A DNA stretch of 64,000 nt from Catajapyx aquilonaris (Eukaryota): the NCBI GenBank assembly GCA_000934665.2, contig KZ538313.1, positions 1-64,000 of the forward strand, given 5' to 3'. The notes under the pieces are model-generated. The model did no database searches. It had not been told where the DNA came from and saw nothing but the letters and a program-made list of their open reading frames with translations. Position 1 is the stretch's first letter; every line of letters begins with the position of its first letter. Below are positions 26,393-63,200 of this stretch, piece after piece. The translations under genes were made by a program, and so were the position numbers.

Positions 26393-29300
26393 ATGGTAAG
26401 TGGTATTTTTTGGGGGGTGCGAATTGGCGGATTTATTTTGGCGGAATCTCTTTCCAGTATGGTTTCGTAAATTATGCGTTGGAACTGTTAGTGATCCACA
26501 ACTTTGGAGAAGCGGTATGGGAGGAAATCAAGTAAGTGTTAATTATTTGGCTAGATTTTATGAAAAATTGTCTGATGATCTTTGATATGAATTCGCTTAA
26601 TAAGTGCTAAAAACTACACACATTGTGCGATGGTAGTTATACACCAACATTATATCTGCGTTTAAGTAATCAATCTCTCTGAATTACTCTTGAAGGCAAA
26701 AGGGCAGGTTATATCCACTCAAATTACGGAGTGATCTCTGGTTACGTAATGTGAATGCATATACTGTATACACTCGACCTGATAAAACTGTCCCTAAGGC
26801 CCGGTAGTATGAAACCAAAATACTGGATAAAGATTTATTGAACGTGGTCACAGTGCGTAATCGGAGGTTTTATTTTTAATTGGAGTTGGTACAACCTGTG
26901 GTGCAACTGAAATAGTCAACTGTGCTTCGATTCATGGGCAGTGTTACGCTTTGAATGGAGAGACAAATCGTGCTTCTATATTATAGAGGTTCAATTAGTA
27001 GTTTCAATTTTACAAAATTTGAAATAAACAGGTTATTTTAAACAATGCTTTTAGTAGCTATTACTATAGAAAGATTAGCTATACTGACATTAGATGCCAT
27101 TTTTTATTGACTTCCAACGAGTTGCTTTTCAAAATGTTTTATATGAGGGTTAACAATATTGAACGTTTCCTCTCTCCATTTCATTTAGATGTTATTGCTA
27201 CACCTTATATACTGCCAAACTTTGCCAAAATGTGACATGTAAAATGACGATGATTTTTTCAGGAAACAAGCCGAGGTGGTGATGGAGGGTCAGTTTCTTG
27301 TGCGTCAAATCTACGAAGACGAGCTGACCTACAACATAGTCGGAGCAGCAACCAAAGTCCTACGTAAGCATTACAAGATTTGTTAAATTCTAATCTGCTA
27401 AATCCTCGCCAAATCATTTTCGCAAAGGCCTTGGAGGCCTTCCAGCTGGAATGGAGTAGCAATTACAACAAGTTCACCAGTTAATTGTCAATTAAGTGTC
27501 GTTGTCGCCTAGAATATGTCGTTAATTCCGAGTTTAAAGCCCGTTTTAATAGAGTGCTTTTCCGGAACAGTTTGGTTCCGGAATTTTGTTTCTGAGTGGT
27601 TTCCTCTTTACCTTTTTTTTTGGAGGCGGGATGTCCCACTGAGAGACGGTCATTGCTTTGGAATTGATTCGTGTCATTATGGCCCACTGGGGATATGACA
27701 AGGGTGTAAAACTGATGTTCTGCCCGCCGGACAAGTTTTTGTGTGTGATGTTAGCGAAAAAAAGGGGATGGGGTTAAATCACTGCTGGTTTTGTGGTTGA
27801 AAATTTTCGCAGAGCTTCCGGCCACTGCTATTCTGGAGCTGTTCGGCAAAACTTTCTTCGATTACTGCCAGGACTCGGGCTACGACAGGATTCTGCAAGT
27901 GCTGGGAGCTACCCCCAGGGATTTCTTGCAGGTTAGTTTTCAAGTACAATGTGTATCAATCATAATATTTAAAATATTGTACAATTTTTCAGAATCTGGA
28001 TGCCCTTCACGACCACTTGGGGACAATCTACCCTGGTATGCGAGCACCTTCATTCAGATGCACCGAGAGCCAGGAAAATGGAAACCTCATCCTACACTAT
28101 TATTCTGACCGACCTGGTCTGGAGTACATTGTCATCGGAATTGTCAAGGTAAGTAGACGATTAATTTCGACAAATCAAAATCAAAATAATGTTACAGTTT
28201 ATATCCGACGGTACTGTATCTTAATCCATTTGAAAGTGCTCAGTGTTTCCTATATACCCGCATTTAGCTCATCACCGGATCTTTCTCCCTGGGGGTAGTT
28301 ACTCACTCATGAAACCCGATTTCATCTTCCCAAATGCACTTACAGAAAAAAAAAATCCAGATCCCCCCCATCCTCTCAGGCAAGTCACAAGGTATAATGA
28401 GGAAGGAAACAAAAGTTCTGCAGCGAAATACACCGTTGCCATATCTGGATGTGACTCAAATAATATAGGAGCATGAAATCTATAGATTGAACTTTTGTCC
28501 TTACAGGCAGTTGCCAGCAAGCTTCACAACACCGAAGTGGAAGTGGAGATATTCAAATCGAGAGAGGAAGATGACCACGTCCAGTTCGTCATCAAAGAGA
28601 AAGGTGACCGAAGCCAGACGCGTCAAGATGACCTCTCAGAAATCCAGCTTCTTCCTCAAGGTATACATCTTACAATACTGAATCCCTTACACTTGAAGCT
28701 TTGGGTCGATTGTCGTCGACTTTTGAGAGGCCTCAATATATATACTCCCCATTGTTGTCATTGGAAAGTGCGCTATAGGCAATGAAGCGAGAGATCGATG
28801 AGAAATTTATGGCCGAGCCCTTTTAGGAAGGGCATATCGGGTGTTTGGAGGGGGGGAGGGGTTTGTATGACCAATATTTTAACTTTCCCATCCGAGGCTT
28901 TAAATCCTGTCGTCTGTGGCTGTTTATCACGGCTCTAATGTGCCGCGTGTCCGGCGCATAAACTGTCAGAGGAGTTATAGCCCGAGCCCCTTTAATTTAT
29001 ATACATTTTTAACGCCCTTCTCTCTCTCTCCGTGTCCAGTTCCCAAAGTGAGTCCGGCTACTTTCTGCCGGATATTCCCGTTTCATCTGATATTCAATCG
29101 GGATCTGGTTATCACACAGGCTGGAAACTCAATCTCCAGGGTGCTGCCTGAGGTCACCAGACCGGGATGTAAGGTCACCGACTTCTTGGAAATGGTATGA
29201 AATGTCTAGGAGAGTTTCCTCTTATATTTTTTGTATATGCTGCTGTGTACTTGCTAACTTGTTTAAAAAATTTATGCGTCAAAGTTACATAATGCACTGC

Positions 29301-32300
29301 AGCAATTCCACGCTTCATTTATTTATGGAGGTCATTTTCTCCGGAGCCTCCCAACACGTACAGTAGGTTGCATAAGTGTTGAATATTTCATCAGATACGA
29401 CCGCACCTGGACTTCACCTTTGGGAAGATCCTGTCTCACATTAACACAATTTACGTCCTGAGGACCAAGGAAGGCCTGATGGAGTACAGGACAAGGGACA
29501 ACAAGGAGGCCACCACGGAACAGTCCAGACTCAGGCTAAAAGGTCAAATGCTCCACCTTCCAGAAGACGACCTCATGGTATTTTTGTGCTCTCCAAGCGT
29601 CATGAATTTGGACGACCTAACCAGGTTAGGACAATACATTTTCCCCAATTGTTTCCCTCGATATATACATAAACATATCTTATTACTTCCAGACGTGGCC
29701 TATATCTCAGCGACATTCCAGTACACGACACGACACGCGACCTGGTGCTTCTCTCTGAGCAGTTTGAAGCCGAGTACAAACTGACCCAAGCTCTGGAAAT
29801 CCTGACGGATAAGCTCCAGCAGACGTACAGAGAGCTAGAGAGCGAGAAGCAGAAGACAGACAGGTACAAAACGCTATATATCCTGCGTTTATATATATAA
29901 AAAAAACAGTGAAAAATCGAGCTGTGTAATCCGATTCCGGAGCTCGGATCAGATGATTACTGCGAGTGAAATGAGATGAAATTGAGGCCAGAGGGGGGAA
30001 GGTATAGAGGAGGAGGAGGAGGAGGGGAGAAAAATGTCAAAACGAGATCCGGAGCACTTATCCTGATGGATGATATTAAGGTTCAATTTGTCGGATGTCA
30101 TCACCAGATGAGATGGGACGTCAAAATGTAGCTTGGTTGCTAAACGATGACATATCACTTTCATTACACCCGGGTTTGTAATAGCCTGAAAATATTATAC
30201 CCGCAGGTTAACCGGGTGATTTTTTTTTGATTGCTACTCGTGTTTTTTTTTACTTATGGAAATGGCTCTTTTTTGCCACCCTGTACCACAGGTTGCTGTA
30301 CTCGGTCCTTCCGATCAGCGTGGCGAACGAGCTTCGTCACAACAGACCCGTGGCTCCACAGCGTTATCCGACGGTAACGCTGCTGTTCTCTGGCATCGTC
30401 GGATTCAGCGACTACTGCTCCAGGAACTCGGCTATGAAGATAGTCCACATGCTGAACGAGATCTACACCACCTTCGACGTGCTGACCGACACGAAGAAGA
30501 ACCCTGAGGTCTACAAGGTGGAGACTGTGGGCGACAAGTACATGGCAGTCAGTGGTCTGCCTGAGCCCTGCCAGAGCCACGCCAGGTGCATCGCCATGCT
30601 GGCACTGGACATGATGGATCTCGTCAAGCAAGTCAGGGTCGACGGAGAGCAAGTTGTGAGTCTGGTTTCCCATTGCACACAAAAGTTAACCTGCTAGCTT
30701 TTTTTTAAAGATTATTTCGTTGCTTTGTTGGCTTTTTAAAAATTACCAACCGATTGAATCTGACCTTTCCAGCAAATCACGATCGGAATACACTCCGGCG
30801 AAGTAGTGACCGGGGTCATAGGTCAGCGCATGCCTCGATACTGCCTGTTCGGCAACACCGTGAACCTGACCAGCCGAACCGAGACCACAGGAGAGAAGGG
30901 TCGAATCAACGTGTCCGAAGACGCTTACAGGTGAGTTTTATTCTTATTTTGATCAGTCGGTGTCCAGGTCAAGGTATCTCTGTAGCGTGATGGGCAAGTC
31001 CAACAGTGCGATCCCGTCTGGCAGTGCCCAGTTTCGTCTCAACGCGGCTCTGATGGCGCACCTGCACAGGTGAATCAGCTCCGGCGGCTGGAGCCATCTC
31101 CTGCCAGGAATCAGACCCTCGGAGATCACCAGCTGGTGGATCACAATGTGCGAAAGCACCTTTTTTTCAAAAAAAAAACACTAGGATTGTAAAGCCTATT
31201 GCTATTACCTCGCCGTTGCTGAGCGGAAGCCTCGGAAGCGATCGAAGGAATAACTTCAGGCAGGTCACAGTCGGTTGGGGGAATCGGACAGCATTGCGAC
31301 ATGACCTCTCGTAAAACTCGGCCACGAAATACAACTTCTTAAGGACTGCTGAAACCGCCTCCATATTACCTGCAGTATGTCATGACAAGGATAAGAAAAC
31401 AATTCGTTGGTAAACCTTTTTGCAATAATTATTATATACCTTCAACGGTTGCACCGTATCTCAGAAGCAGACCAAGTCCCTTCTCAGAACCCCAGTTGAC
31501 GGCCGTTTTGACCGAATTGCCCCAGTAGCAGTTATCAAAAGGGATGTCCACGAATCGGAACGAGCCTTTCTCGAGGTCGAAGGTCATCCTGCCCTTGTTG
31601 GTAGTGTCCAGGAAGTACTCCAGCGCCTGCATGCATTGGGCCTCTGTCCTCAGGAAGCTCCCATATCCCATGACGTTGAACAGCTTTGGACACACCAGTC
31701 CAAGGATCAGCTTCTGGAAGATGCTCTGACACGATAGGATCTCGTCCAGCACCTGCCTGACCAAGGTCAGGTCACTGCAACCGTTGGCGAAGCAGACCAA
31801 GGCGGATATGTGAAGCAGCTCGTGAGACTTGGAGTGACAATGCTGCTCCCTCTGGGCCTTGGCTTTTCGGTGACAGTTGATGGCCACGGACACGACATCA
31901 CCTGTGTCGCGATGAGCGGGTGACCCTGCGAGTCGGAGGTTAATGTAGCAGGTCAGATCGTCGACCTGGCTTTTGATGGCGTTACTGGTGTCCGTTGGAC
32001 CCCAGAAGCGCGAAAATATGCGACCCATCAGGCCATCCCCAACCATTCCACCACAACAAACCTCATGCGGTTTCCTGGTTACGCCATATATATAGTTGAA
32101 ATCAATAATAATTGTTAAAATATTCAGACTTATCAAGACGTGATCTTTTCCAGATGGCTGGCTCTACCCGAAAATTCTCACCCGAGCTTCAAGTTCGAGC
32201 ACAGAGGAGCCATAACCATGAAGGGCAAGAAGGATCCAATGGAGGTGTGGTTCCTGAGTCGACAAGACAAGAGCTCTGAAGCGGCGCCTCAAACCAAATC

Positions 32301-32382
32301 GACGCCAACGACGCCAATGACGCCCAAGGAATGCCCATCGTCCAAAGCCTGCACTCCAACCTCAGCACCTACGTCCATGTGA
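26393..32382 (+). CDS. GUCY1B1: Soluble guanylate cyclase beta-1 subunit (NO receptor; H-NOX, PAS/HNOBA, coiled coil, cyclase domain), 12 coding exons, 637 aa
   Basis: Phase-consistent GT-AG exons: 26393-26395 (ATG only), 26458-26531, 27263-27363, 27813-27931, 27993-28148, 28507-28660, 29040-29194, 29395-29624, 29693-29863, 30292-30655, 30773-30930, 32154-32382 (sum 1914 nt). Motifs: [22 protein letters not shown] (heme His), YYSDR (YxSxR), [30 protein letters not shown]. Likely ortholog of Drosophila Gycbeta100B. Confidence 0.97.
30937..30942 (-). terminator. Putative polyadenylation signal (AATAAA) of the nested gene
   Basis: AATAAA on the minus strand, 10 nt after the TGA at 30953-30955 and 6 nt inside the host intron from the exon-11 donor junction. 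Confidence 0.5.
30953..32046 (-). CDS. stops: STOPS-like SOCS-box protein, nested antisense in the last intron of the sGC-beta gene; 3 exons, ~324 aa
   Basis: Minus-strand exons 32046-31440, 31369-31209 and 31159-30953 join in phase through GT-AG introns of 70 and 49 nt. C-terminal SOCS box: [41 protein letters not shown]. Upstream motifs ALEYFLD, RFVDIP and LLLRYGA match my recollection of insect STOPS / ASB17-annotated proteins. The start codon (32046 or 32028) and the last acceptor are less certain. Confidence 0.82.
32086..32093 (-). promoter_or_regulatory. Possible TATA box of the nested stops-like gene
   Basis: TATATATA-type run about 40 nt upstream of ATG 32046 on the minus strand. Confidence 0.3.
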
Positions 32383-35300
32383 CAAAAAAGGAAGGCCTCA
32401 AAGGCCTCCAATATCTGCCAGCTACTCTGAATATTGACCTCTGACCCATCCCAGATTCCCATCTGTACACATCCCCATTGTGCGTATGTATGTATGTATG
32501 TATGATTGTATGAAGACTGTACCGCTTCGCCTCTATTTTGAGGAAAAGTAACGGTCATGATGTCCGGTCAATTCCAAGTCCTCGAGCCGTTACGGGTAAC
32601 GGCTACCTTCTGGACCACTATAGTTTAGGAGGGACAAACTTTCGCTACATTAACAACCTGTACTACTGTAGACATGTATACTGTATATATATGTCGTTAT
32701 CTTGTAACTATGTGGAGACAATTGCGACCATTAAGCGGTGATCATAAACTGACAGTTTTTTTTTTTCAAAGACAGCAGACAAAAATGGTGTCAATGATTG
32801 AACTTACATTATTTTTATATTGCAGTTGATTTAGTAAACAGATTGATTTTACCTTGACCCGGTATCATAGGAAATGTTGCTAAATTTACAGCAAAATTTC
32901 ACATTTCATGCTCAGATTTTTACAAGGCCAAAAATTGACCGAAAACAAACTTCCTTTTTGAACAACTTACACGATAGAAGACAGTAATGACGGTTAATTA
33001 CACATTACATTCCTGGAAGATTTTTGGACGTAATGTTACTGCTTGGTCGTCGCAAAGGTTGGAAATACCACTAATTATGCGACCGTAGCCAACTGTATAC
33101 GTTTACAAATTCTAAGTGACTATATGGAAAGTCACGTTTCACTTTTTCCTTTAAGAGGTCTTCAGTTTTTATTGTCCACCCACTTTTTATTACCGATCTA
33201 TGTTGAGGGAACTAAAAAGAGTGGTCGGCCTTCGTAACGAGGCGGGAAGGTATTTGGAGTGGAAGAGAGATAAGGGGAGAGACGGCAACTTGCAAAAAAA
33301 AGGGGGCAGCCTACATCATTACACGCCAATATCCATATTCTGATTAGAGCCGAGTCCTACATTACTCCGCCCGCAGCTCGGTTTGGCACGCGAATTTGGA
33401 GAAGTCTATTGGTGTTAAGTACGTGCGGCCGTGTTTTGGGTTTGTATTACTTTCTCTCAACACTGCCCCACCTTTCAAAAAAAAAAAGATATATTATGCT
33501 GTAGGCCAACTAAACTGCTGCACACGACTCAACATTAAAAAAGGATGGAATTTGCAATTAACCAGTGCCATTTTCAGTGGTTGCTAATGGAATTCAATAG
33601 TAAATAATAGCTATAAAATGTAACATTGTTGTAAATTATGCAGTTGTTACAGATCCTTTTTGCAGAAAATGTAACAATTTCTCTCAGATTTGAGGCTGGT
33701 TTGCACCAATATTATTTTTTTGGCAAAATCGCAACTTCCAAATTATTATGTACAAGGTAAAGGTATGCATAGCTGCAGCACTCGTCTCCTTCAACACTAG
33801 GAGCTCAATGCTGTAATAGCAAATGTGCAGCAGTTTAGTGACCTGACTCACCCTGTACATATATACTGGTCAGAAATGTATAGTATTTGTTAGATGTGTA
33901 TATAAAGAGGTACCGACGTGTGTAATTACACGTTAGGGTGTATTGTAGGCGTTATTAGACACGCGGATGTTATTTTGTTAGGCGCAGGTTCTTCACCCTG
34001 TTTTTATTAATTTTAATGAGGGGGGGGGGGCATATTTTTATGACAGCCTTCACGCCTTTTGCTCGGAGCGTGGAAGTGACTACAAAGCGTCTATTTCACT
34101 CTAGGTTAATGGACTTAAAGGTTAGAGACACGAGTGGTGTCAGCAAGGGAGAGAATGGGTGTATGTATGTAATTATAATATAAAAAAAGAGGAGATTCGT
34201 CATGAAAACTGGGGCACAACATTACTGAATATAAAAATGCTGTTCCTTCAAGCACCACGTATGACGTCCCAGTCACGCTATTTTTAAACGCACCAGATAA
34301 AAAAAAAGGACACAGAAATTTGGGTTCCGTCAGCTATTTTAATGGTCACGGTTACGCACTTGTAGTTATTAGGCAGGATAACGAGGTTCAGGTTATTACG
34401 ACCAGTTATAATAATTGGTCCAGATGATTACAAATGGCGACAGCTTCTCATTTGTACTTTGCTGTGGATAAGTAGGAACATTTACGATGTTAAAAGTTGT
34501 AATTAGTGTCATGTCCATGTATGACGGAAGCAATTAACTTATTTTCTATTCTGGTAATATGGGCAATAAATTGAATTTTATTTAAAAAGCAAATGTGCTT
34601 CGGATGTTCCGACGACACTTGACACATTTGTTAGCAGCAAAACAGCATTTGGGCTAATTGATGCTAAATACCAATTGAGTCGACGATTGTTACATTCAGG
34701 ATAATATGTCACCTTTCTTCACAGTTAATTAAGATATGACAAGCCGCCTGCCTGCCAGTTTCATCAAGCATTAAAATTGATGATGGAAAGTATACCAAAA
34801 ACTTTGCAGTAAATGTCAACCAGTAAGAATTAATTTCCCTGCGAGCCCAGTAGTAATTTGCACGGAATTACTTAGTTTGAATACGTTAGATTTGCTCTCT
34901 CAGCATTTTCATTACTTCCTTATAATCCACCTCCCCAACTGTTTGTATCACGCTTTCATATTTACAACACTTGTGATATCTACCTCGCCGGTGACTATAT
35001 AATCATCACAATCCCCCCCCACAATTTATTGTCTAGTCACATGTACCGATTTAATGTCACCAATGATATCAGTGATAATAAATCGTGATGGAAGCAGCAG
35101 TGTGCGTGCAATAATTCACCCTGGCAAAGAAGAAGCAACCGGAAAAAAGTACCCCGGACGAGAAGAGGTCAGCAAAGCATAACGACTAATGCACTCAGGA
35201 TGGGGGTCTTAAGTTCCTCTATTTATTTTTTTTGCTCACCCTCCTTTTTTTCGCAAATTGCAGAAATGAGACACGCCCCAATCGAAATTTCCAACGTCCC

Positions 35301-38300: not shown

Positions 38301-38480
38301 TAGACCAAGGCATTGTAAAATTGTGTAATCCGAAATAAAATAAAAGATTAACTTGCTATTATTCATGACAGCATTTTCGGTTTGTCGTGACAGGTCTCGA
38401 ATAATAAATTCAGAATTAATTAATTCCCCGCTCTAATTGCAGGCTCTTCCCCCCCGACCAGACATCTCTCTTGCCAAACA

Positions 38481-41400
38481 ATGTCCGGCAAACTGTCACG
38501 TCCCCCGTCGACCAAGCGTCGTCCGGCCCCTCCCGTGCCAGAAATCAGGAGGGACGGACACTCAATCAAGATAGTCCAGAAGGACCAGTCCAGCAGCTGT
38601 GCAGCAGGTACGCCCCCATCCCCTCCAGTCCGGATCATCCTGAACAACAACAACAACATGAAGGAGAAAGAGGTGGGCAGCAACAGCAGCAACAACAACG
38701 CCGAGTCAGTCACGGCGGCAGGTTACGTGGTGAGCATCGCGATCAACGGAGCCCATCAGCGAAACGGGAACGAGACCCGCATCCAGGTAGGCCACAACCA
38801 GTCGTCGACCACGCTTCAAGAGGACAACATCTCGGACGGAAGCGGCGGCATGGCCTGTGTCCGGATTAGGGTCGGAGGCGGCGGCGCCACGCAGGACTAT
38901 GCGGAGGCGTCCCGGAACCAGGATCCTTACTACTACTTCGGACAGGACGCGGCGATGGACAGCGGGGTGTGTAGTGACCACGACGGAAGCACGCCGCCTC
39001 CGATACCTCGAAAGGACGGCAGCCTGACCAGCAACAGTGGGGACAGTTACTCGGACGAGGACAGTGACGGTGAAAGTAACATAAGCACGGATTCGCTCAA
39101 TCCGGATAAGCCTCCTCCGCTGCCTCCCAAGACCAAGATCGGTCGGGACAATTTGCTCATTGCGTTGAACGAACGCACGTACTTGGAGCGGAATACCAAA
39201 AAGGTGCTGGAACCTCCGACGGAAGACCGGTACCTCAAGTTTCATCTGAACGAGAACCAGGAGGAAGGTGAGCAGCCCAAGGAGAGACGCCGGGAAGAGG
39301 AAGTAGACGACATCGACGCCAGTTTCGCTGGGGTACGACACCTGACCGATTCACCGACGGACGACAGGACCATACTCAGCACAGCCGGTACCATCAGAGG
39401 GGTCAAGAACAGGGTCAGGGCAGGGATAGCCACTTTTCTACAGCAGAACACCATCGTCAAGGTGAGGACACACAATTTTTGTCTCGGGACATCATAAATG
39501 TTTTCTATTTTCACTGGATTGGGGCGTCGTAAAATTCCGCTCTCGCTTCTTAATAGACCATTCGGACATTGAAGTGCTAAAGGTTTTCTACTTTCACAGC
39601 GTGTGTGTCGGTTACCAATTTTCGCGCTTAAACGGAGCGAATCCGATCAACAATTTCCATGTTTGCTTGGCTTTCACGGGACTAATGGCCCGTTTCTTGC
39701 TACTCTATGGACACGTGGCCCATAAAATGTACATGGAGGTGCTGTCATTAAAGACAAGCAATGTTTATTGCTCCGAGCTTGTAGTAATTTGGCAAAAGTG
39801 CTTATCTATATTGGCAGGCTTGCCATATGACACGGGCATGAAAAATTGCTAATTTTATATCTGGCTTATCATCACATCTTGTTTACCAGGAAGACATACA
39901 AACGGGCTGTTGCTTTATGTTGCCAACAGAGCATTTATGGTAGTTCCGATCAGTAATTCATTAATAAAATTGAGCACTGTGAGCTGGTTCATCTAATTGC
40001 AATTTATTCGCATGGTCGATATCAATCTTGCCATTTTAAACTTGTGTTGAAGCAGGTTTCTTGCGATATCCGGATATCCTTAGAAAACCCGACAAGCCAG
40101 GATATTTCGAAACATGTTTATTGCCGAAGCAATTAAACACACCTGTTTTTATAATCTGGCTCGCCGATATTCGTCGCTGGAGCGAACAATCCGCAACTTA
40201 TTCATCATCTCCTCCGATGACCTCATGGCGAGTGGTAAATAATAATGGTTCAAAGCACCTTCCAGGAAGTCCAGTCTCTGATTTTCGTTATCTCTTTCGG
40301 GGTGCATTTCCTGCGCCATGCTCAAGTTCATCGCCTGCAGCTCTGGAGGTACATGTCTTTGAGGCGCCAAAACTCTCCCAAAAGGAATTCCTGGTTGCTC
40401 ACTCGCTTATGAAGGCCTGCTCTTGCCCTTTGGGACGCACTGACCATTACGGAGAAGAGAAAGAAAGAAACAGAAAGAAAAAAACACAGAATGAAATAAA
40501 AGGTCCGTCGCGTTTCACTTCCGATTCGAAGAACAGACGGGCGTGACGGACAAGTGAACGTTATGTAACACGTGAGCTTCGGTCAAGGTTCGAAGATTGG
40601 TCCTATTCTGGTGTCACTCAGAGGGTCAGTCGAGAGGCGCAAAATATACTTGTTGAAGAGGCCTGAAAACATATGTGAAGGTCAAGGCGAAACGACTTGT
40701 AACTGTCATTTCGCTGTATTGACTCGTTTTTCAAGCGTGAGGATCTTTCCCATGGTTTTCCCTTTGACCTCTGACCACCCGCAGCAAAACTTGACCAAAC
40801 GACTTTTCGTTACCCACTATTCCAAATTTCAAGCCTATTTCTCTCAGCATGCAAGTTCGAAGTGTGACAAGCCGTTTTAATAACTAACAGCTGGGAAAAG
40901 AACGCCCGACCTGAATATGCACTACGACCATAAACAATCCGCAAAAACTAGAAGGATATTTGCAAATTGGATGCGACAACACCGGTAGATGCTGCGCCTA
41001 CTTTTTTCGGTTGCAAAAGATACCGTTGAAACATGTTTTTGCCATCTTTGCTGCATCGGTATCCCAAGGACGTCGTGATCAACATCATAACCTTTCACGA
41101 GTTGGGCGAACTTGTCAGAAACGCCCTTCTGTGTATAACAATGCTCGCCTTTTTTTTGTATATATAAAAAAATACAAGTGCATATACAAACAGGGTGGTC
41201 CACAATATAAAACCGGAATCATTTTACAGATTGTTTACTTCAACAGTGCGACCACCCTGTACATCACAAACACTATATAGAAAGGCTTGTTTTAAGGTTA
41301 GGTTTGGAAAAACTTGTGGAGAAATTTTTTAAGTCCATTTTATACCGGTTTAACTGGCTAGAGACGAGATCACGTTGCATCCAGTTCCACATGCAATATT

Positions 41401-54250: not shown

Positions 54251-57200
54251 TCACTTTTTCTTGCGTTTCTTGGCTTGCCTGCTTTGAGGTGACTCATCCG
54301 AAGTTTGCAGAATGCTTTCTTGGCAGCTCACAGGTGAGTCACTGACATTAATTATCTCATCTAGATCCTGGTCGCTAACGATGGCATTGTTGGCCTGGGC
54401 TTCCTCAGCTGCAGCTGCTGCCTCCTGCTCTAAACTCTGCAGCATTTGGAAGCCAGGCTCCAAGGTCTGTTGGGCATGTTCAGAAAATGCTTCATCCCCA
54501 TCTTCTGGAGCTGGAAAGTGAATTTCAGGTACATCTTCATCTTCATCTCCATTCTCCAAGTCTTGGCTGATGTCCAGACTAGCATCCGTCAAGGCTGGAA
54601 GAATTGGTGTCGGAAAAGGCTGCAGCTTTACAGTCTCGTACTCCTTCAACAGTTTGTGACACCCCTGCAAGGCGCGCTGGCGTCGGAGGAGGATGCGGCG
54701 GTGGTAGTAGTCATGGAGTGTCAAAACACTGCCGAGGCCCATCTCATGAAACACACGGTCCATGGCGTCCTGACAGTTCAAAAGCAATTCATGGAGTCAT
54801 ACCCTACATTTTGCAAGCCCATGTAAATAATTGTCCTTATTTTAAAATGAATTTTGGTGTTTTTTGTTTGAAGAAATACGTATTAGTTTCAAACTATGAT
54901 CGATCTAAAATAATAATAATAATAATATTATATTATGTTATATTATATACGTACGGTACTGTCCTGCCCTTTCACATTATCCACAATAAAACACAAGTAA
55001 TGCATAAGTCAGGAACGCACTCGGTCTGCTATGTTCTTTTGTTTGCTTTGCTGGCACCCTACCAACCGAATCGAATGACTGCCAATAACTGCGAAAAATT
55101 GTCAATTTCACCCCATACAATTGGTCTCATCATGTACTGTACATGGATGGACATATTAGCAGTTTTGGGTTTTTAGCACTTTCTGGTTTTCCTAATTTCA
55201 GATAAGAGATTGCCAATCTGTACTTGTACTTTCAGTGAATCGCAAATATATCAACTCACTGGAAATCCAGTGGGTCCAAACAATGCCTGGCCATCCACAG
55301 CATGCCTCAGGAGCTGGACCATCTTTATCATGAACTGTTCAGCTGCACCTACTACTGCGTCAATCGCAGATTCCGCAGCACCTGTCAAGGGAAAGAACTA
55401 TATAGGTATGGCATCCAGAATCACATTAGCCATCCAACAAGGCATGAGAAAATCACTACCCAAGCTAGCTTCTGTAACTTTTATCAGTAATATTTGCACA
55501 AATGCATTATAGGGTGAAGGAATACTCATGTACTTGCTATAATCGCTAGGAGCAGCCTGAGAGAACATGCAAATCTAATATAGGAATGAGCAAGTAGTTT
55601 TGGGTGCCCATGCGTACAGTGCCTTTAAAGTTTCTTGACGTCACATCCACCCTGCCAACTTCAAAGCAGCAAAAGTCAGCTTGAGGGCATCCAAATAATC
55701 CAGCCTTGAGAGAAAAACTCATCGTCCATGTACAGCACAGTACGTGAACAAATCCCTTTGGAGTAAGCATCCAGGTGGGACACCTCTGCTGTGCTGTTGT
55801 AGTTTAACTCATACACTAACATGATTGGTACTGCATTGTAATCCTACGAGACAATAATGTCAGGTGTGCCACTGCATTTGGTGATGAAAGCATGAAATTT
55901 AGTACGAATATCCCTCAGACCCTACTTTTCAAATCCAGATGTGGCGCCACGCCCGTTTTCGCCCAGGAGGAGGGTTGGATACCCTGAAGCGAGTGACAAG
56001 TCTTTTTCTGAACGAACTATGCTCCCCAGGAGGAAATGTGTCAAACAAATGTTGTAGAGAAACATGTATTCTACAAAAGAGTATAGAGTACCTTTTCCAC
56101 GTACAGGCCGTATTTTCGGAGCTACAGCGACTTGAACCCTGGCCTGCATGCGCGCGGCGGGGCTGGGTGCAACAGCAACGTTCGTAAATAAACCGACCCC
56201 AGGCCCGTTGTACAGTACTGTGCGTAGTGTAAGCTGCTTTAACTAACGTTTAATAAAAATAATTAAACTAACCATAGATTTTTAGTATCTCTTCAAGAAA
56301 ACCTCTGTAATATTTCTTCATTGTTGAGACATCCTGACATTTTTTTGGACTTTTATTATTTATTTATTTTTTGCCAATGCACAGACACGCTGCACCCGGA
56401 TAATTTGTGACTACAATGTAAATTACCTTTGAGCGTACCATCAGACTATCTGGCAATTACAGTAAAACCTCGATATAACGCTCTTCAAGGGGCAGCCCAA
56501 AAGTATCGTTATAAGCGGAATAGCGTTATATTCGGGAAAATTTACCATATGGAAATGATCAGGGGACCGGAAAAGCAGGAAAGCGTTATATGCAGGAGTG
56601 TTACCGTATTTACTCGCATATAAGACGCACTTTTTTTCCGATTTTTGTAGCTCAAAAAGTAGGGTGCATCTTATACGCGTGTGCATCTTATACGGCAGGG
56701 CACAAAGGGTGAAACCCGTGAGAAATCGTGAAAATCGTTTATTGAAAAATTTAAAAACATGGCACATTCGAATCAGTCATCGTCGCTCTCCTCGGCCTTC
56801 CACACACGTGCACAATTCCGGTGTGACCTTGCCAATTGTCCCATTTTCCACTAGTCCCCCCCCNCCCCCCCTTTTTTTTTACTACATGCATTGCACATGC
56901 ATTGCACACGAGGTTGCTGCCGGCAGCTCGAGGCCAGTTCCCAAACTACGGCAATAAATATGGGTGCGTCTTATATGAGTCAACAACCGATTTTCCATGA
57001 TTTTTCGCCTCAAAACCGGGGTGCGTCTTATACACGTGTGCGTCTTATATGCGAGTAAATACGGTATATCGACGTTTTACTGTACCGGTATACACGATTT
57101 TTCCTTCACCCTCTCTGTAATTCCAGTCAAAGAAATAGTAGGACTTGCAGCAATTATAATCGTAACAAGTTCAGGTAGATGACACATTTCACTTCCTAAT

Positions 57201-57938: not shown

Positions 57939-58139
57939 TGGGCCACACAAGCACTCTCTGGAAAAAAAGGACACAAACGTGCCAAACGCGATCCAGACGT
58001 GGTGAGCCCGACCGCGTCTACTAGCTTTTAAGCATACCTGAGACGACTAGGGTGCCCTGCCAGACCGTGTCTCGAACGCGTCTAGTTTAACCGTACCCGA
58101 CACGCGACGAAGAGAGACGCGGTCAGTCACTCCCTGGGC

Positions 58140-58151
58140 GCCGCCATCTTG
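58140..58151 (-). promoter_or_regulatory. YY1/Pho-type motif CAAGATGGCGGC at the probable SUPT7L promoter
   Basis: Exact match to the canonical YY1 consensus, oriented towards SUPT7L, about 100 nt upstream of a candidate 5'UTR splice donor (58037) in CpG-rich sequence. Confidence 0.65.
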
Positions 58152-58155
58152 GTAC

Positions 58156-58401
58156 AGTGCTGCCAACCCGAGAAGTGTTGCCAACACGACCAATTGTGCC
58201 AACCGGACAAGTGCTGCCAACCCGAGAAGTGTTGCCAACACGACCAATTGTGCCAACCGGACAAGTGCTGCCAACCCGAGAAGTGTTGCCAACACGACCA
58301 ATTGTGCCAACACGACCAATTGTGCCAACCGGACAAGTGCTGCCAACCCGAGAAGTGTTGCCAACACGACCAATTGTGCCAACCGGACAAGTGCTGCCAA
58401 C
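58156..58401. repeat. Higher-order tandem repeat: 18-bp TGCCAAC-core monomers arranged in 54-bp units
   Basis: From 58161, with A=TGCCAACCCGAGAAGTGT, B=TGCCAACACGACCAATTG and C=TGCCAACCGGACAAGTGC, the order is ABC ABC ABBC ABC plus a final TGCCAAC (14 cores). Copies of each type are identical. Confidence 0.97.
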
Positions 58402-58998
58402 TGAAACTTTGAAGCGAGGTGGATGCAGCTTTAGGTTTTTAATATTGTCATTTTTTAAATAAAAAAAAGCTTTTAAACGCGATATGAAATGATACTTATT
58501 TGGTGTGTCTCTTTTGATCCTTTCTTTTTTTGGATTGTTTACGGTGAATGAGCCAGTAACTGCATATTTTGGCAGATTTCCATTGCCAAAAATGTGTGTG
58601 TCCTAGCACCACGAACAAGTAAATTTAAAAAAAAAAACTCTCCGGAGGGGGATTCCACAGACTTGTAGAATCTGGATTCTATTCAAAGGGCATATTCACA
58701 GCAGCATGGTCGTGCAAGATCGGGTTTCTCGGAAAGCAAAAAAGTTGCCAAGGTGACACTGTATACACTACTAGCCTACAACAAGGAGAAACCTAACATC
58801 AAGGTAAATTATTATAAAGAAAAGGACCAGCATTGGAATAACCAGCAGTGAGTAATTAGCCATTTCTTGTCATCACTAGAACTTGATTCTCCAGTGATTC
58901 TCAAAAACTATTTTAAACACATTAAATCGTAAAAATTGCATGTAATTAATGTAACTCAAAACTGAAGTAGCTTAGTTAAATTAGCTGACCTTCACTAA

Positions 58999-59846: not shown

Positions 59847-60237
59847 AACAGATATCGCGAGGTTTTATGAAAACCTTTCTCATGTCCCATTCAGGAAGTG
59901 TACAGTATGTCCATTGAGTCAATGCCACTCAATTTTTCGACCCCGTCTTACGACGACCAGCTATACGCTATTTCTTAGTTGTCACTCCGCGAGCCCTCTC
60001 ATTCCATTTTTTCACTACCATGGTCTTCCTCATTGCAGGTTCTGCCAAATTTTGGCTACGGGTGCGCTAGTAGAGATATATATTGTGACAAACCTGAGAC
60101 GAAATGAAATAATCATAAATTCCAATCTTCATGTTTACAGTGAAATTATTTTCATTTTTCAATATCGATAACACCATCCCCCCGTACCTTCAGTGATGCA
60201 ACCTTTCTAAGTGACACTTTTCCTGCAGGTACACACC

Positions 60238-63200
60238 ATGGCTAATAATTCTTCCACACCAGAAGGAATGAACATGAGAGTCCAGCTGAAGGTTCAAATG
60301 TTGGACGTACCTGTGGAAGACCCGGACGGCAGCAAGGCAATGGCCAGAGCAGCTGAACTCGGCCGATGGGATCAGGTGTTTCGGATGGTCCAGAACGGAG
60401 CAAATGTCCGATCAGCATCATCTGAGGGCAGGTCGGCCATGCTCATCGCGGCTGGACGTGGCTACTGGGACACGGTCAAGTGGATGGTGATTGAAGGAGC
60501 GGACATTTGCTCAATGGACTACGAAGGTCGGAATGCCCTGGTCATCGCAGGACAGCAAGGGCAATGGAAAGTGGTCAAATGGCTCGTGGAAAAAGGATCT
60601 GACAACAGGTCTTTAGATGTCAGAAATGTCGGACAGACTGCGGTTGAGGTGGCGGCTGGACATGGTTATTGGGACATGGTTAAATGGCTGGTCAATTATG
60701 CTTTTGATGTGTGTAACACAAGGTATGGGGTCAGAACTGCGGTGGTCATTGCTGGTCAGTCCGGTCATTGGGATATGGTCAAATGGCTGGTAAACCGTGG
60801 AGCAGATTACGTCCACGCAGAGAAATACGGGGAAGGGACGGCGGTGGTCATCGCTGCCGAAAATGGACAGTGGGATAAAATCAAAATGATGGTCAAAAGT
60901 GGAGTGGACATCCGATCAGTACACACTGGGTTGAAGGTGGCTGCCAGTATTGCGATTGAAAACGGTCGAATGGACATGACTGAATGGCTGCTGGACAACA
61001 TGCCTCATTGCGACGCTAGCGATGACACCTGTAAATTTCAACTACACTATGCCGTAAATTACGATCATTTTGATATCATGAAATTGCTGGTACACAAAGG
61101 GGCTTACGAGAGGGGTGAAATGTTGGACGAATTCACTAAAAAAGGTCACTTAACCGCAGCCAAATGGATATCGAGCTACACTACTCCGACATTTTCATGC
61201 AATTCAAAATCTAAAGAACTAGTGGTAAAAGGATATTACGTTCGTCTCCAAGACGTAGACGTTGCTATCAAAAAATGCACTAACATTAAGATCCTTGAAG
61301 TCCATGCACTTAACACACTCTTTTTAGACCAAGATCTAGTGAAATCTAACTTGCAAGCTGTGATCATAGCACCGATCTGGAATGTCGTGGGAACCAGAAA
61401 GATTACCTTCAGCAGCAACTCCGGATCTCCTAGTTTACTAGCAATCGGAAATTTTGTTAACAGCCAGGATCTTACTATTTTAGTCAACAACCAGAAAGGT
61501 CTTCCTAACATGCAAATCGCAGGAAGTTCCCAGTTAATTCCACTGGATGTTATAAATTTAGGATGTAATTCAAAACCATATCGTGTCGTAAACAGTTACC
61601 AGGCGTATTTGAGAGAAAGATCAGTCGACAGGGAGTTAAAACAAGAGTTAATTGCACTATCAAGGCGATTAACTTTGAGTCCTAAGGTCGGTGCTCTTTA
61701 CGGAACGTATGGGTTGATTGATGCTCTGAGCGGAATGGAAAACCAGTTTCATGAATTGCACGACACGATTGATTTCGCTCCATTTTATCAGATACTATTG
61801 CAAGGGATCAGCAAGTACGCAGAACATCCGATCAGTACCGAAAAATCTCACGAGTACAGAAAAGCTCTTAGTTATTTGTACACGGCCACGTTGTCAAAAG
61901 CAAGCGAGCTGAACTATCGCTCTGACGGCAGCTTAATAATAGACATCAGCGAGTTCCTACGAGTAGCCATCGAGGACATTGTAAAATTGCAAGACATTTC
62001 AGACAAGTTTGCCATGAAGCAACAGATCGAAAGACGCAATGCTGGATACAAGACCGAAATAGACAACAAAATCAAGGAAGCCATGCAATTCACTGCCAAG
62101 ATAACGGCCGAAATAGACGCCATCAACGATCAAATAGAAAGAGAAATAACGAAATTGGTAGAAGAGGTTAGAGAGATGGTGAAAAGAGCCGAGAAGGAGA
62201 AGGAAGAACTGGAGAAGAAGCGTGAGGAACTGAAAAGAATGAGGGCTCTCGGGGTGTTGTTTGGTGTGTTGAAAGGACTCAGCGTCGTTTTAGGGTTTTT
62301 AGGTCCTATAGGCGCAGTAGCTGGAGGAATACTAGGAGTTGCTACGGGTATTGCCGAATCGTTCACCATGCGAAACAGACAATCCGGCGGGCCTGTAGAG
62401 GCAGTACCTGCTGGAGTCAAAAACTTGCTGGAAACTGCTGAAAACGGAGTTAATTACGTGATGAAGAGAAACCTACAGGCTTTCAACGAGCAGCTGAGCC
62501 AGCTGTCCAACGAGGCCAGCAAGTATCCGGACCAGTTAGGGGACACTTCAAGCGTGGTGACGGACATCCAGAGCAACCTGTCAAACGATGAAGCAGATGT
62601 CGACGAGCTGCAATCACAGCTGGACACAGAGTTGGCTAGAAAAAAGCAAGAGTTGGAATACAGGCAGACTGAGGCTGACAGAAAGACTCAAGGTGCTTTG
62701 AAGACTATTCAGTATGCGCATAAGGCTCTTCATGTGGCTCAAGTGTCGACTGATATTTACCTCAAGTATCAGCACGACTCTGACCAAATCGAGCAGGTGG
62801 AACAGGCCATAAAGCATGTTGATGCTAAAATAGCAGGGTTGAAAGTGTACGAACAGAAAATATACGACTTCATGGGTCCTACCCTGAAAAACATGCGCAG
62901 TGACCTCAAACAGTTGGAAGGTCACTTAGAAAACAAGACGCTCGTCGCTTTAGACTTCACCAAATGGCAGGTGCAAACAGCCATCGAGGATATGAGGATT
63001 GAGATGCACAAGTTCACTGAAGGTTTTGAGACTCAAAGCACGTTAACTAGGCAGATTCAAAAGTTAAACGAGGCCATGACTACACTAATCAACGTGTATG
63101 ATCGAATCCAAAATTATGGCGAGCAAAAAAGGCTGGCTGATTACATAGCTGAAATTGCGCTATCGGGTCACGTCACAGTTTACAACAATGAACTTGGAGA

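Follow-up and report, generated by a model that had tools for sequence, protein, structure and literature searches.

The window (the whole analysed stretch of 64,000 nt, positions 1 to 64,000 of contig KZ538313.1 from Catajapyx aquilonaris) carries on its forward strand a gene for the beta-1 subunit of the NO receptor sGC (sGC-beta1), the last intron of which houses, on the opposite strand, the entire coding sequence (CDS) of a small three-exon gene of the STOPS/ASB17 type. The features of the locus are as follows:

26458..32383, plus strand: host gene sGC-beta1 (11 coding exons identified; the exon with the initiator Met lies further upstream)
30773..30930, plus strand: penultimate coding exon of sGC-beta1, ending in ..VSEDAYR (splice joints and homolog alignment)
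30931..32153, plus strand: last intron of sGC-beta1, host of the nested gene (1223 nt, GT..AG, phase 2)
32154..32383, plus strand: last coding exon of sGC-beta1, with the end of the cyclase domain and a tail (splice joints and homolog alignment)
32086..32093, minus strand: TATA-like run 40-47 nt 5' of the stops ATG, in the 107-nt gap; candidate core promoter
31440..32046, minus strand: stops/ASB17 exon 1 (607 nt, ATG at 32046), helical N-terminal domain and a single ankyrin repeat (family alignment)
31370..31439, minus strand: stops intron 1 (70 nt, GT..AG, phase 1; predicted)
31209..31369, minus strand: stops exon 2 (161 nt), helical linker with a CLKLFLR motif (profile alignment)
31160..31208, minus strand: stops intron 2 (49 nt, GT..AG, phase 0; predicted)
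30953..31159, minus strand: stops exon 3 (207 nt), SOCS box and stop codon (Pfam SOCS_box, E 3.8e-11)
30937..30942, minus strand: AATAAA, candidate poly(A) signal adjoining the host donor GTGAGT

The 11 coding exons of the host yield a spliced product of 636 aa with no internal stops, and eight of the splice joints, including the skip of 1223 nt over the last intron, are present in RNA-type contigs from a single low-depth run (X1), the kind of which is not on record and the contigs of which are spliced at GT..AG. Across the last intron the frame continues from ..VSEDAYR to WLALPEN.., and the break falls within the catalytic domain, as the preliminary description of this DNA had it, at position 153 of the 183 positions of the Pfam cyclase profile. 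Homologs of the product bear the domains PF07700, PF07701 and PF00211 (H-NOX, HNOBA and cyclase), and the named ones are beta-1 subunits; most of the named beta-1 proteins of arthropods are 61–76% identical to it, and a PDB search places the host with the beta-1 type (Manduca sGC beta-1, E-value 1.7e-51, vs. alpha, 2.7e-17). Relative to termite sGC beta-1, the region encoded at 30293-30655 (plus strand) has a deletion of four residues in the N-terminal part of the cyclase domain, shared by the homolog P0059, and the protein bears an additional Pro/Thr/Ser-rich C-terminal tail. Elsewhere in the window we noted an open frame that covers at least 1263 codons, has N-terminal ankyrin repeats and leaves the window (60211-63999, plus strand), two open frames of 357 and 181 aa with no Pfam match at E 0.01 (38424-39494, plus strand, and 54254-54796, minus strand), and a tandem repeat (58126-58602, minus strand) whose translation is a repeated VGSTCPVGTIGRVGNTSR-like unit.

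The nested CDS (975 nt, 324 aa, three exons, no internal stops) lies entirely inside the one host intron; its span of 1094 nt takes up 89% of the intron and leaves gaps of 22 nt at the host donor and 107 nt at the acceptor. All of the sizes and coordinates first reported for the intron, the exons, the span and the two gaps hold. Both nested splice junctions are predicted from the sequence, and the contigs of run X1, of low depth, leave 31148 to 32083 uncovered, which says nothing either way on expression of the nested gene. The GC content of the stops exons is 0.53–0.59 against 0.27–0.30 in its introns, GC3 is 0.71 in stops and 0.65 in the host, and the N-terminus of the family aligns with the start of the nested product (blastp with P0003 from residue 4). 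A chance antisense open frame was rejected on the grounds of this contrast in GC, the GC3 and the profile score described below, collinear over both junctions, and the reading of the nested gene as a retrocopy or a pseudogene was likewise rejected. The sole AATAAA near the stops stop codon has its end 6 nt away from the host donor, and since cleavage usually takes place 10–30 nt beyond a poly(A) signal, the 3' end of the stops mRNA probably lies within the host exon. The stops CDS is nested, and the stops transcript may not be wholly nested.

A phmmer search with exon 1 over 1.84 billion representatives returned 26 matches, 25 of STOPS/ASB17 type and one a generic ankyrin protein, with a SOCS box in 22 of the 26 (one below the cut-off). 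Names are attached to 16 of the 25 clusters examined, all of them from winged insects ("stops" in Rhodnius, Anabrus and Haematobia, "ASB17" in several). A STOPS profile constructed from 20 homologs, with the window sequence excluded, scores the spliced product at 196.5 bits (best of 200 shuffles: 5.7), and the contributions of exon 1 (107 bits), exon 2 (9.7) and exon 3 (69) are collinear across both junctions. The blastp search of the nested product identified homologs from Blattella (E-value 4e-45), Rhodnius (stops, 2e-33) and Haematobia (stops, 8e-32), and the SOCS box (PF07525) scores 43.5 bits at a cut-off of 23.5. The product aligns to the single ankyrin segment of the family, with a helix pair at 178-196 in the model, and a Pfam Ank match on the product itself was not found. 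The consensus N-terminal motifs of STOPS/ASB17 are NG.VC.MGK.HN, CE.TFERL and GWKSDF; C70, H75, L100, C106 and G127 of the homologous N-terminal domain are kept in the nested product. The model of exon 1 (pLDDT 84.5) has a helix order like that of the family, and its VIA-align comparison gave middling helical matches (best Z 10.5). The Atlas search with exon 1 gave generic ankyrin clusters only, at low recognition, and word-based homolog searches with exon 1 gave nothing at 111–354 aa or 355–2000 aa because it is too divergent. For the cockroach homolog (model pLDDT 84) the best PDB match is human ASB8 (E-value 2.8e-5) and the best Atlas match is ASB17 (0.97). In the reciprocal comparison suggested in the preliminary description D. 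nasuta and Haematobia stood in for the D. melanogaster STOPS, and two different queries led to one and the same locus in this genome. Membership of another SOCS-box family was rejected, and the STOPS-like identity proposed at the outset is borne out by the profile, blastp, SOCS box and family matches: judged by its sequence, the nested gene is the single stops/ASB17 ortholog.

The sequence had been called divergent, and it proved to be the most divergent member of the family, with a median identity of 28% vs. 33–42% among the other members and an end branch of 2.91 in the STOPS tree vs. a median of 0.84. Over six species-matched pairs the distance ratio is 1.45 for STOPS and 1.14 for the host. 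Part of this divergence is expected, since the members come from related insects and the window protein from their outgroup. Of the 24 conserved N-terminal columns the nested product matches 11 (fraction among members: median 0.96, minimum 0.78), compared with five of six in the ankyrin and linker region and 11 of 11 in the SOCS box; the N-terminal changes could reflect outgroup distance or decay. The STOPS tree does not place the lineage, as it has two starred branches only and a long window branch, and a STOPS protein from the species of P0059, whose host protein is 91% identical to that of the window, was not found among the homolog hits.

A metagenome scan for stops loci detected seven (L002–L008). 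L007, whose last host exon matches ant and wasp proteins at 100% identity, has an opposite-strand stops between this exon and the VSEDAYR exon, with the same phase-2 junction and an intron of 3118 nt. L002–L005 have the same host acceptor and last exon, antisense to an intronless stops and some 1.2 kb upstream of it; these loci are counted as one lineage, being termite-like (checked for L002 and L004). The shared intron position is seen from both sides in one of the seven loci and from the acceptor side in five, and the flanks of L006 and L008 are too short. Inspection of the intron after VSEDAYR in other insects had been suggested as a check on the age of the pair, and it is in L007, and on the acceptor side in L002–L005, that stops was found there. 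The introns of stops itself differ: this copy has two, the termite-like loci lack them, and L007 has one at another site. The extreme compactness claimed for the present locus is evident from the comparison of its 1223-nt intron with the 3118 nt of L007 and with the 10-kb internal gene of the fly. Database records add further cases. In Laodelphax the tags of host and stops (LSTR011155/011156) are consecutive, on contigs equal in size, in Blattella both are recorded on a contig size of 1.12 Mb, and in Ischnura and Bacillus both are recorded on equal-sized chromosome-scale sequences, which is weak evidence. Altogether, among the six species with both proteins on record, four have them on equal-sized contigs and two do not: in the psyllid Diaphorina host and stops are on differently sized contigs of one assembly, and Halyomorpha differs too. 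Nesting can thus be lost or split, and the psyllid pair looks un-nested.

The age of the arrangement was estimated from the host. In a quick IQ-TREE run on the window protein with 55 homologs out of the 120 listed, the window protein and P0059 fall outside a clade of 27 rows (SH-aLRT 98), the named ones all from winged insects, to which they are joined at just 86. In this tree, which puts fish beside chelicerates and contains, by name, no myriapod, dipluran, silverfish or remipede, the springtails, water fleas, malacostracans and chelicerates are placed elsewhere. The placement is most readily read as that of a wingless hexapod, and possibly as that of a myriapod or remipede. The common position and phase of the intron are observed directly; the tree suggests that the nesting was present before winged insects and this lineage separated and was passed on ever after, and with the dating of insects it would have been retained for more than 400 million years. 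The proposal of an ancient nested pair is in agreement with the phase-2 intron of L007, the termite-like loci and the host tree, and an independent recent nesting in the fly was rejected.

The preliminary description tentatively placed both fly genes at 100B, and missed that their nesting was already tabulated and classed as young. The two fly identifiers were chosen independently of the nesting table, and we take FBgn0086704 to be fly stops, a symbol that full-text and supplement searches did not confirm. FBgn0013973 is given as the sGC beta 1 ortholog in the accessible part of PMC6094452, and the pair is tabulated as simple nesting, at 3R:31137501-31171333(+) and 3R:31158429-31168473(-), in Table S1 of Assis 2016 (PMC5174743). 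In the fly, too, the pair is nested and on opposite strands, with the identity of stops in it assumed. In the part of Table S5 that we could consult, the pair is classed as nested in the D. melanogaster lineage only ("young"), and the D. pseudoobscura orthologs are given spans of 3 bp, 42.6 kb apart on opposite strands; in the examined part of Tables S5-S6 most ortholog spans are 3 bp (PMC5174743). This geometry fits nesting. The TipE cluster is apparently also among the identifiers of the same table, and that cluster is nested across insects (PMC3240667, in part). With spans of 3 bp, a geometry that fits nesting and the apparent presence of the TipE cluster in the table, the "young" class of the fly pair, contradicted by our data, is probably an annotation artefact. 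Several further "young" nestings in the examined part of Tables S5-S6 of PMC5174743 may be old, given their 3-bp ortholog spans. In a search beyond the reach of which lay most subscription papers and several supplements, we found no paper devoted to the stops/sGC-beta1 nesting.

A link of the pair to vision and to NO/cGMP signalling had also been proposed. Three opsin motif patterns (used without a positive control) gave 0, 0 and 10 matches in this genome, the ten being at chance level (control: 7). A 7tm_1 search, in which 147 of the 464 candidates were scored, gave 154 matches, and among the 130 GPCR regions fetched none had an in-frame TM7 lysine or, by eye, the look of an opsin; an opsin-like pattern match at L122 was rejected as chance and a TM7 lysine flag at L025 as being in the wrong frame. 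The genome (G000) contains an expansion of closely related GPCRs of peptide-receptor-like type that have one TM3 signature in common, several of them in tandem (contigs C3285, C6569, C3832, C1656, C8559, C8102, C2529 and others), a second GPCR expansion (C2357, C2794, C12696, C9618 and C2149), and one weak match (29 bits) to 7tm_6, the odorant-receptor family. Cryptochrome/photolyase was not found in this genome by a search whose control was positive in 8 of 14 genomes. Arrestin matches occur on ten contigs, and among the nine read there is one of beta type. Arrestin domains also form tandem arrays, with 29 of the 48 Arrestin_N matches at C6324 9670-171271 and ten at C2003 2579-29330, those read being of alpha-arrestin type. 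There are two TRPC loci, one gene of ninaB/RPE65 type and a PLC-beta, which we take to be NORPA-like: its longer tested exon is nearest to cephalopod PLC-beta, and its shorter exon scores PLC-beta2 slightly higher. Among PLC genes we also noted three X domains on single long exons (C519, C537 and C456), presumably PLC-gamma-like, in addition to four PLC loci of which two are PLC-beta-like. The animal is likely eyeless. According to the accessible parts of PMC6938034, cryptochrome/photolyase loss is reported for blind soil arthropods and blind Campodea retains two opsin fragments. As for the function of the family, the consulted parts of the literature report that fly stops is eye-enriched (FPKM 110 in eye vs. 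2 in brain) and that STOPS raises NORPA in flies (PMC8527478, PMC6698658), that the fly ear transcriptome includes stops (PMC7198581), that stops has a mutant-based Gene Ontology annotation for hearing (PMC6698658, supplement), and that mammalian ASB17 acts in spermiation, degrades ESPN and stabilises TRAF6 (PMC8749070, PMC8842666). With neither opsin nor cryptochrome found in this incomplete search, and nothing that ties the two proteins together, coupling of the pair through vision or NO/cGMP signalling is unsupported.

We consider it reasonably probable that the locus represents an ancient, structurally locked antisense nesting of an Elongin-BC adaptor, probably with a non-visual role in this animal. 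With the intron splitting the catalytic domain of the host, an escape of stops would have to break neither gene, and the nesting would persist; the promoter space (107 nt) and the poly(A) signal of stops would press on the host splice sites and hinder escape further. SOCS box and Elongin B/C are a textbook pair, and STOPS, by analogy to its family, would serve as an ASB-type adaptor that engages Elongin B/C through the SOCS box, while its ankyrin and helical part would bind a partner and set its level (e.g. a PLC-beta of NORPA type). The role here may be mechanosensory, in other PLC-beta signalling or in testis; it is probably non-visual, given that opsins were not found and that a remodelled N-terminal motif stands beside an intact SOCS box. 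The two genes are probably transcribed in different cells, with less polymerase collision and without functional coupling, which fits the eye enrichment of fly stops and the divergence that nested pairs show in general. A bolder extension, possible but in our opinion rather doubtful, is that an opsin- and cryptochrome-less, eyeless and wingless hexapod keeps a functional stops, that the gene was ancestrally non-visual (a PLC-beta mechanosensor or an ASB17-like testis role) and was later recruited to the eye, and that the 13 changed columns are a vision-specific partner site.

The retention for over 400 million years (at the usual age of the split), the extreme packing and the likely 3' overlap at the host donor could also suggest functional coupling, in which sensory neurons would co-regulate STOPS (as PLC shut-off) with the NO receptor or let the two gate each other, for instance through common enhancers or an antisense overlap at the donor. 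We regard this as unlikely: long-lived nestings with poor correlation between host and nested gene are known (the TipE cluster, PMC3240667, in part), the class of fly genes with the greatest divergence in expression is that of nested ones in the accessible part of PMC5174743, fly stops is concentrated in the eye rather than the brain, the psyllid pair is apparently un-nested, and positive evidence was not found. It is more improbable still that stops is a decaying relic, relaxed after the loss of eyes and surviving as deletion from so tight an intron is risky, even though the N-terminal columns (11 of 24, below the minimum of the members), the end branch of 2.91 and the faster change of stops than of the host point in that direction; the frame is open over three exons with canonical splice sites, GC3 is 0.71 against an intron GC below 0.31, the exon 1 model has the family helix layout at a predicted pLDDT of 84.5, and relaxed selection would not leave one domain as clean as the SOCS box (11 of 11; ankyrin and linker five of six). 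Just as improbable is an ordinary visual STOPS in an animal with eyes or photoreceptors, with missed opsins and a divergence due to phylogenetic distance. The opsin search covered a part of the candidates (147 of 464), the ninaB-type gene, two TRPC loci and NORPA-like PLC are present, and even blind Campodea has its two opsin fragments (PMC6938034, in part); however, the three patterns gave chance matches only, none of the 130 GPCR regions is opsin-like, one beta-type arrestin was found among the nine of ten arrestin contigs read, and the cryptochrome/photolyase that was not found here is commonly lost in blind arthropods (PMC6938034, in part). The ancient nesting of an adaptor with a probably non-visual role remains our preferred explanation.

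Drosophila stops in Gycbeta100B (with the identity of stops as assumed) corresponds to the present case in family, host, opposite strands and a single internal gene, with the difference that a 10-kb internal gene lies in a 34-kb host there and one of 1.1 kb here. In STOPS of the fly type, unlike in this copy, the SOCS box is followed by a long acidic tail; this copy is altered at 13 of 24 conserved N-terminal columns, and the fly gene is eye-enriched. Vertebrate ASB17 and other ASB adaptors share the helical domain, the ankyrin repeat and the C-terminal SOCS box; in contrast to ASB adaptors, there is one recognisable ankyrin repeat here. The Cul5-box motif is LPLP; in this copy it reads LDLP, and it is degenerate in the cockroach too. 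The accessible part of PMC7198581 names Asb17 as ortholog of stops. The consulted part of PMC3240667 describes similar last-intron nestings across insect orders, with occasional escape, for the TipE/Teh cluster (last intron of CG18675) and GMC oxidoreductases (flotillin-2), and there host and nested genes are not clearly co-expressed. Unlike the TipE cluster, the present nesting involves a single gene in an intron that splits the catalytic domain of its host, reaches a lineage outside winged insects, and has 89% of the intron occupied by the nested span.

The family and the annotated nesting in the fly host were already known; new are the depth of conservation, the conflict with the published "young" call, and the retention of stops with a remodelled N-terminal domain where opsin was not found. 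Few very old single-gene nestings are known in insects, and this locus is one more; the 3-bp ortholog spans in the examined part of PMC5174743 bear on the statistics of young vs. old nestings. As a 1.2-kb intron that contains an entire spliced gene in antisense, the locus is also a compact model of transcriptional interference. Should the animal truly lack opsins, it would provide a natural test of STOPS function in cells other than photoreceptors and map the residues that possibly contact a visual partner, and if the 13 altered columns are indeed the partner site, they would give a direct handle on the target of STOPS.
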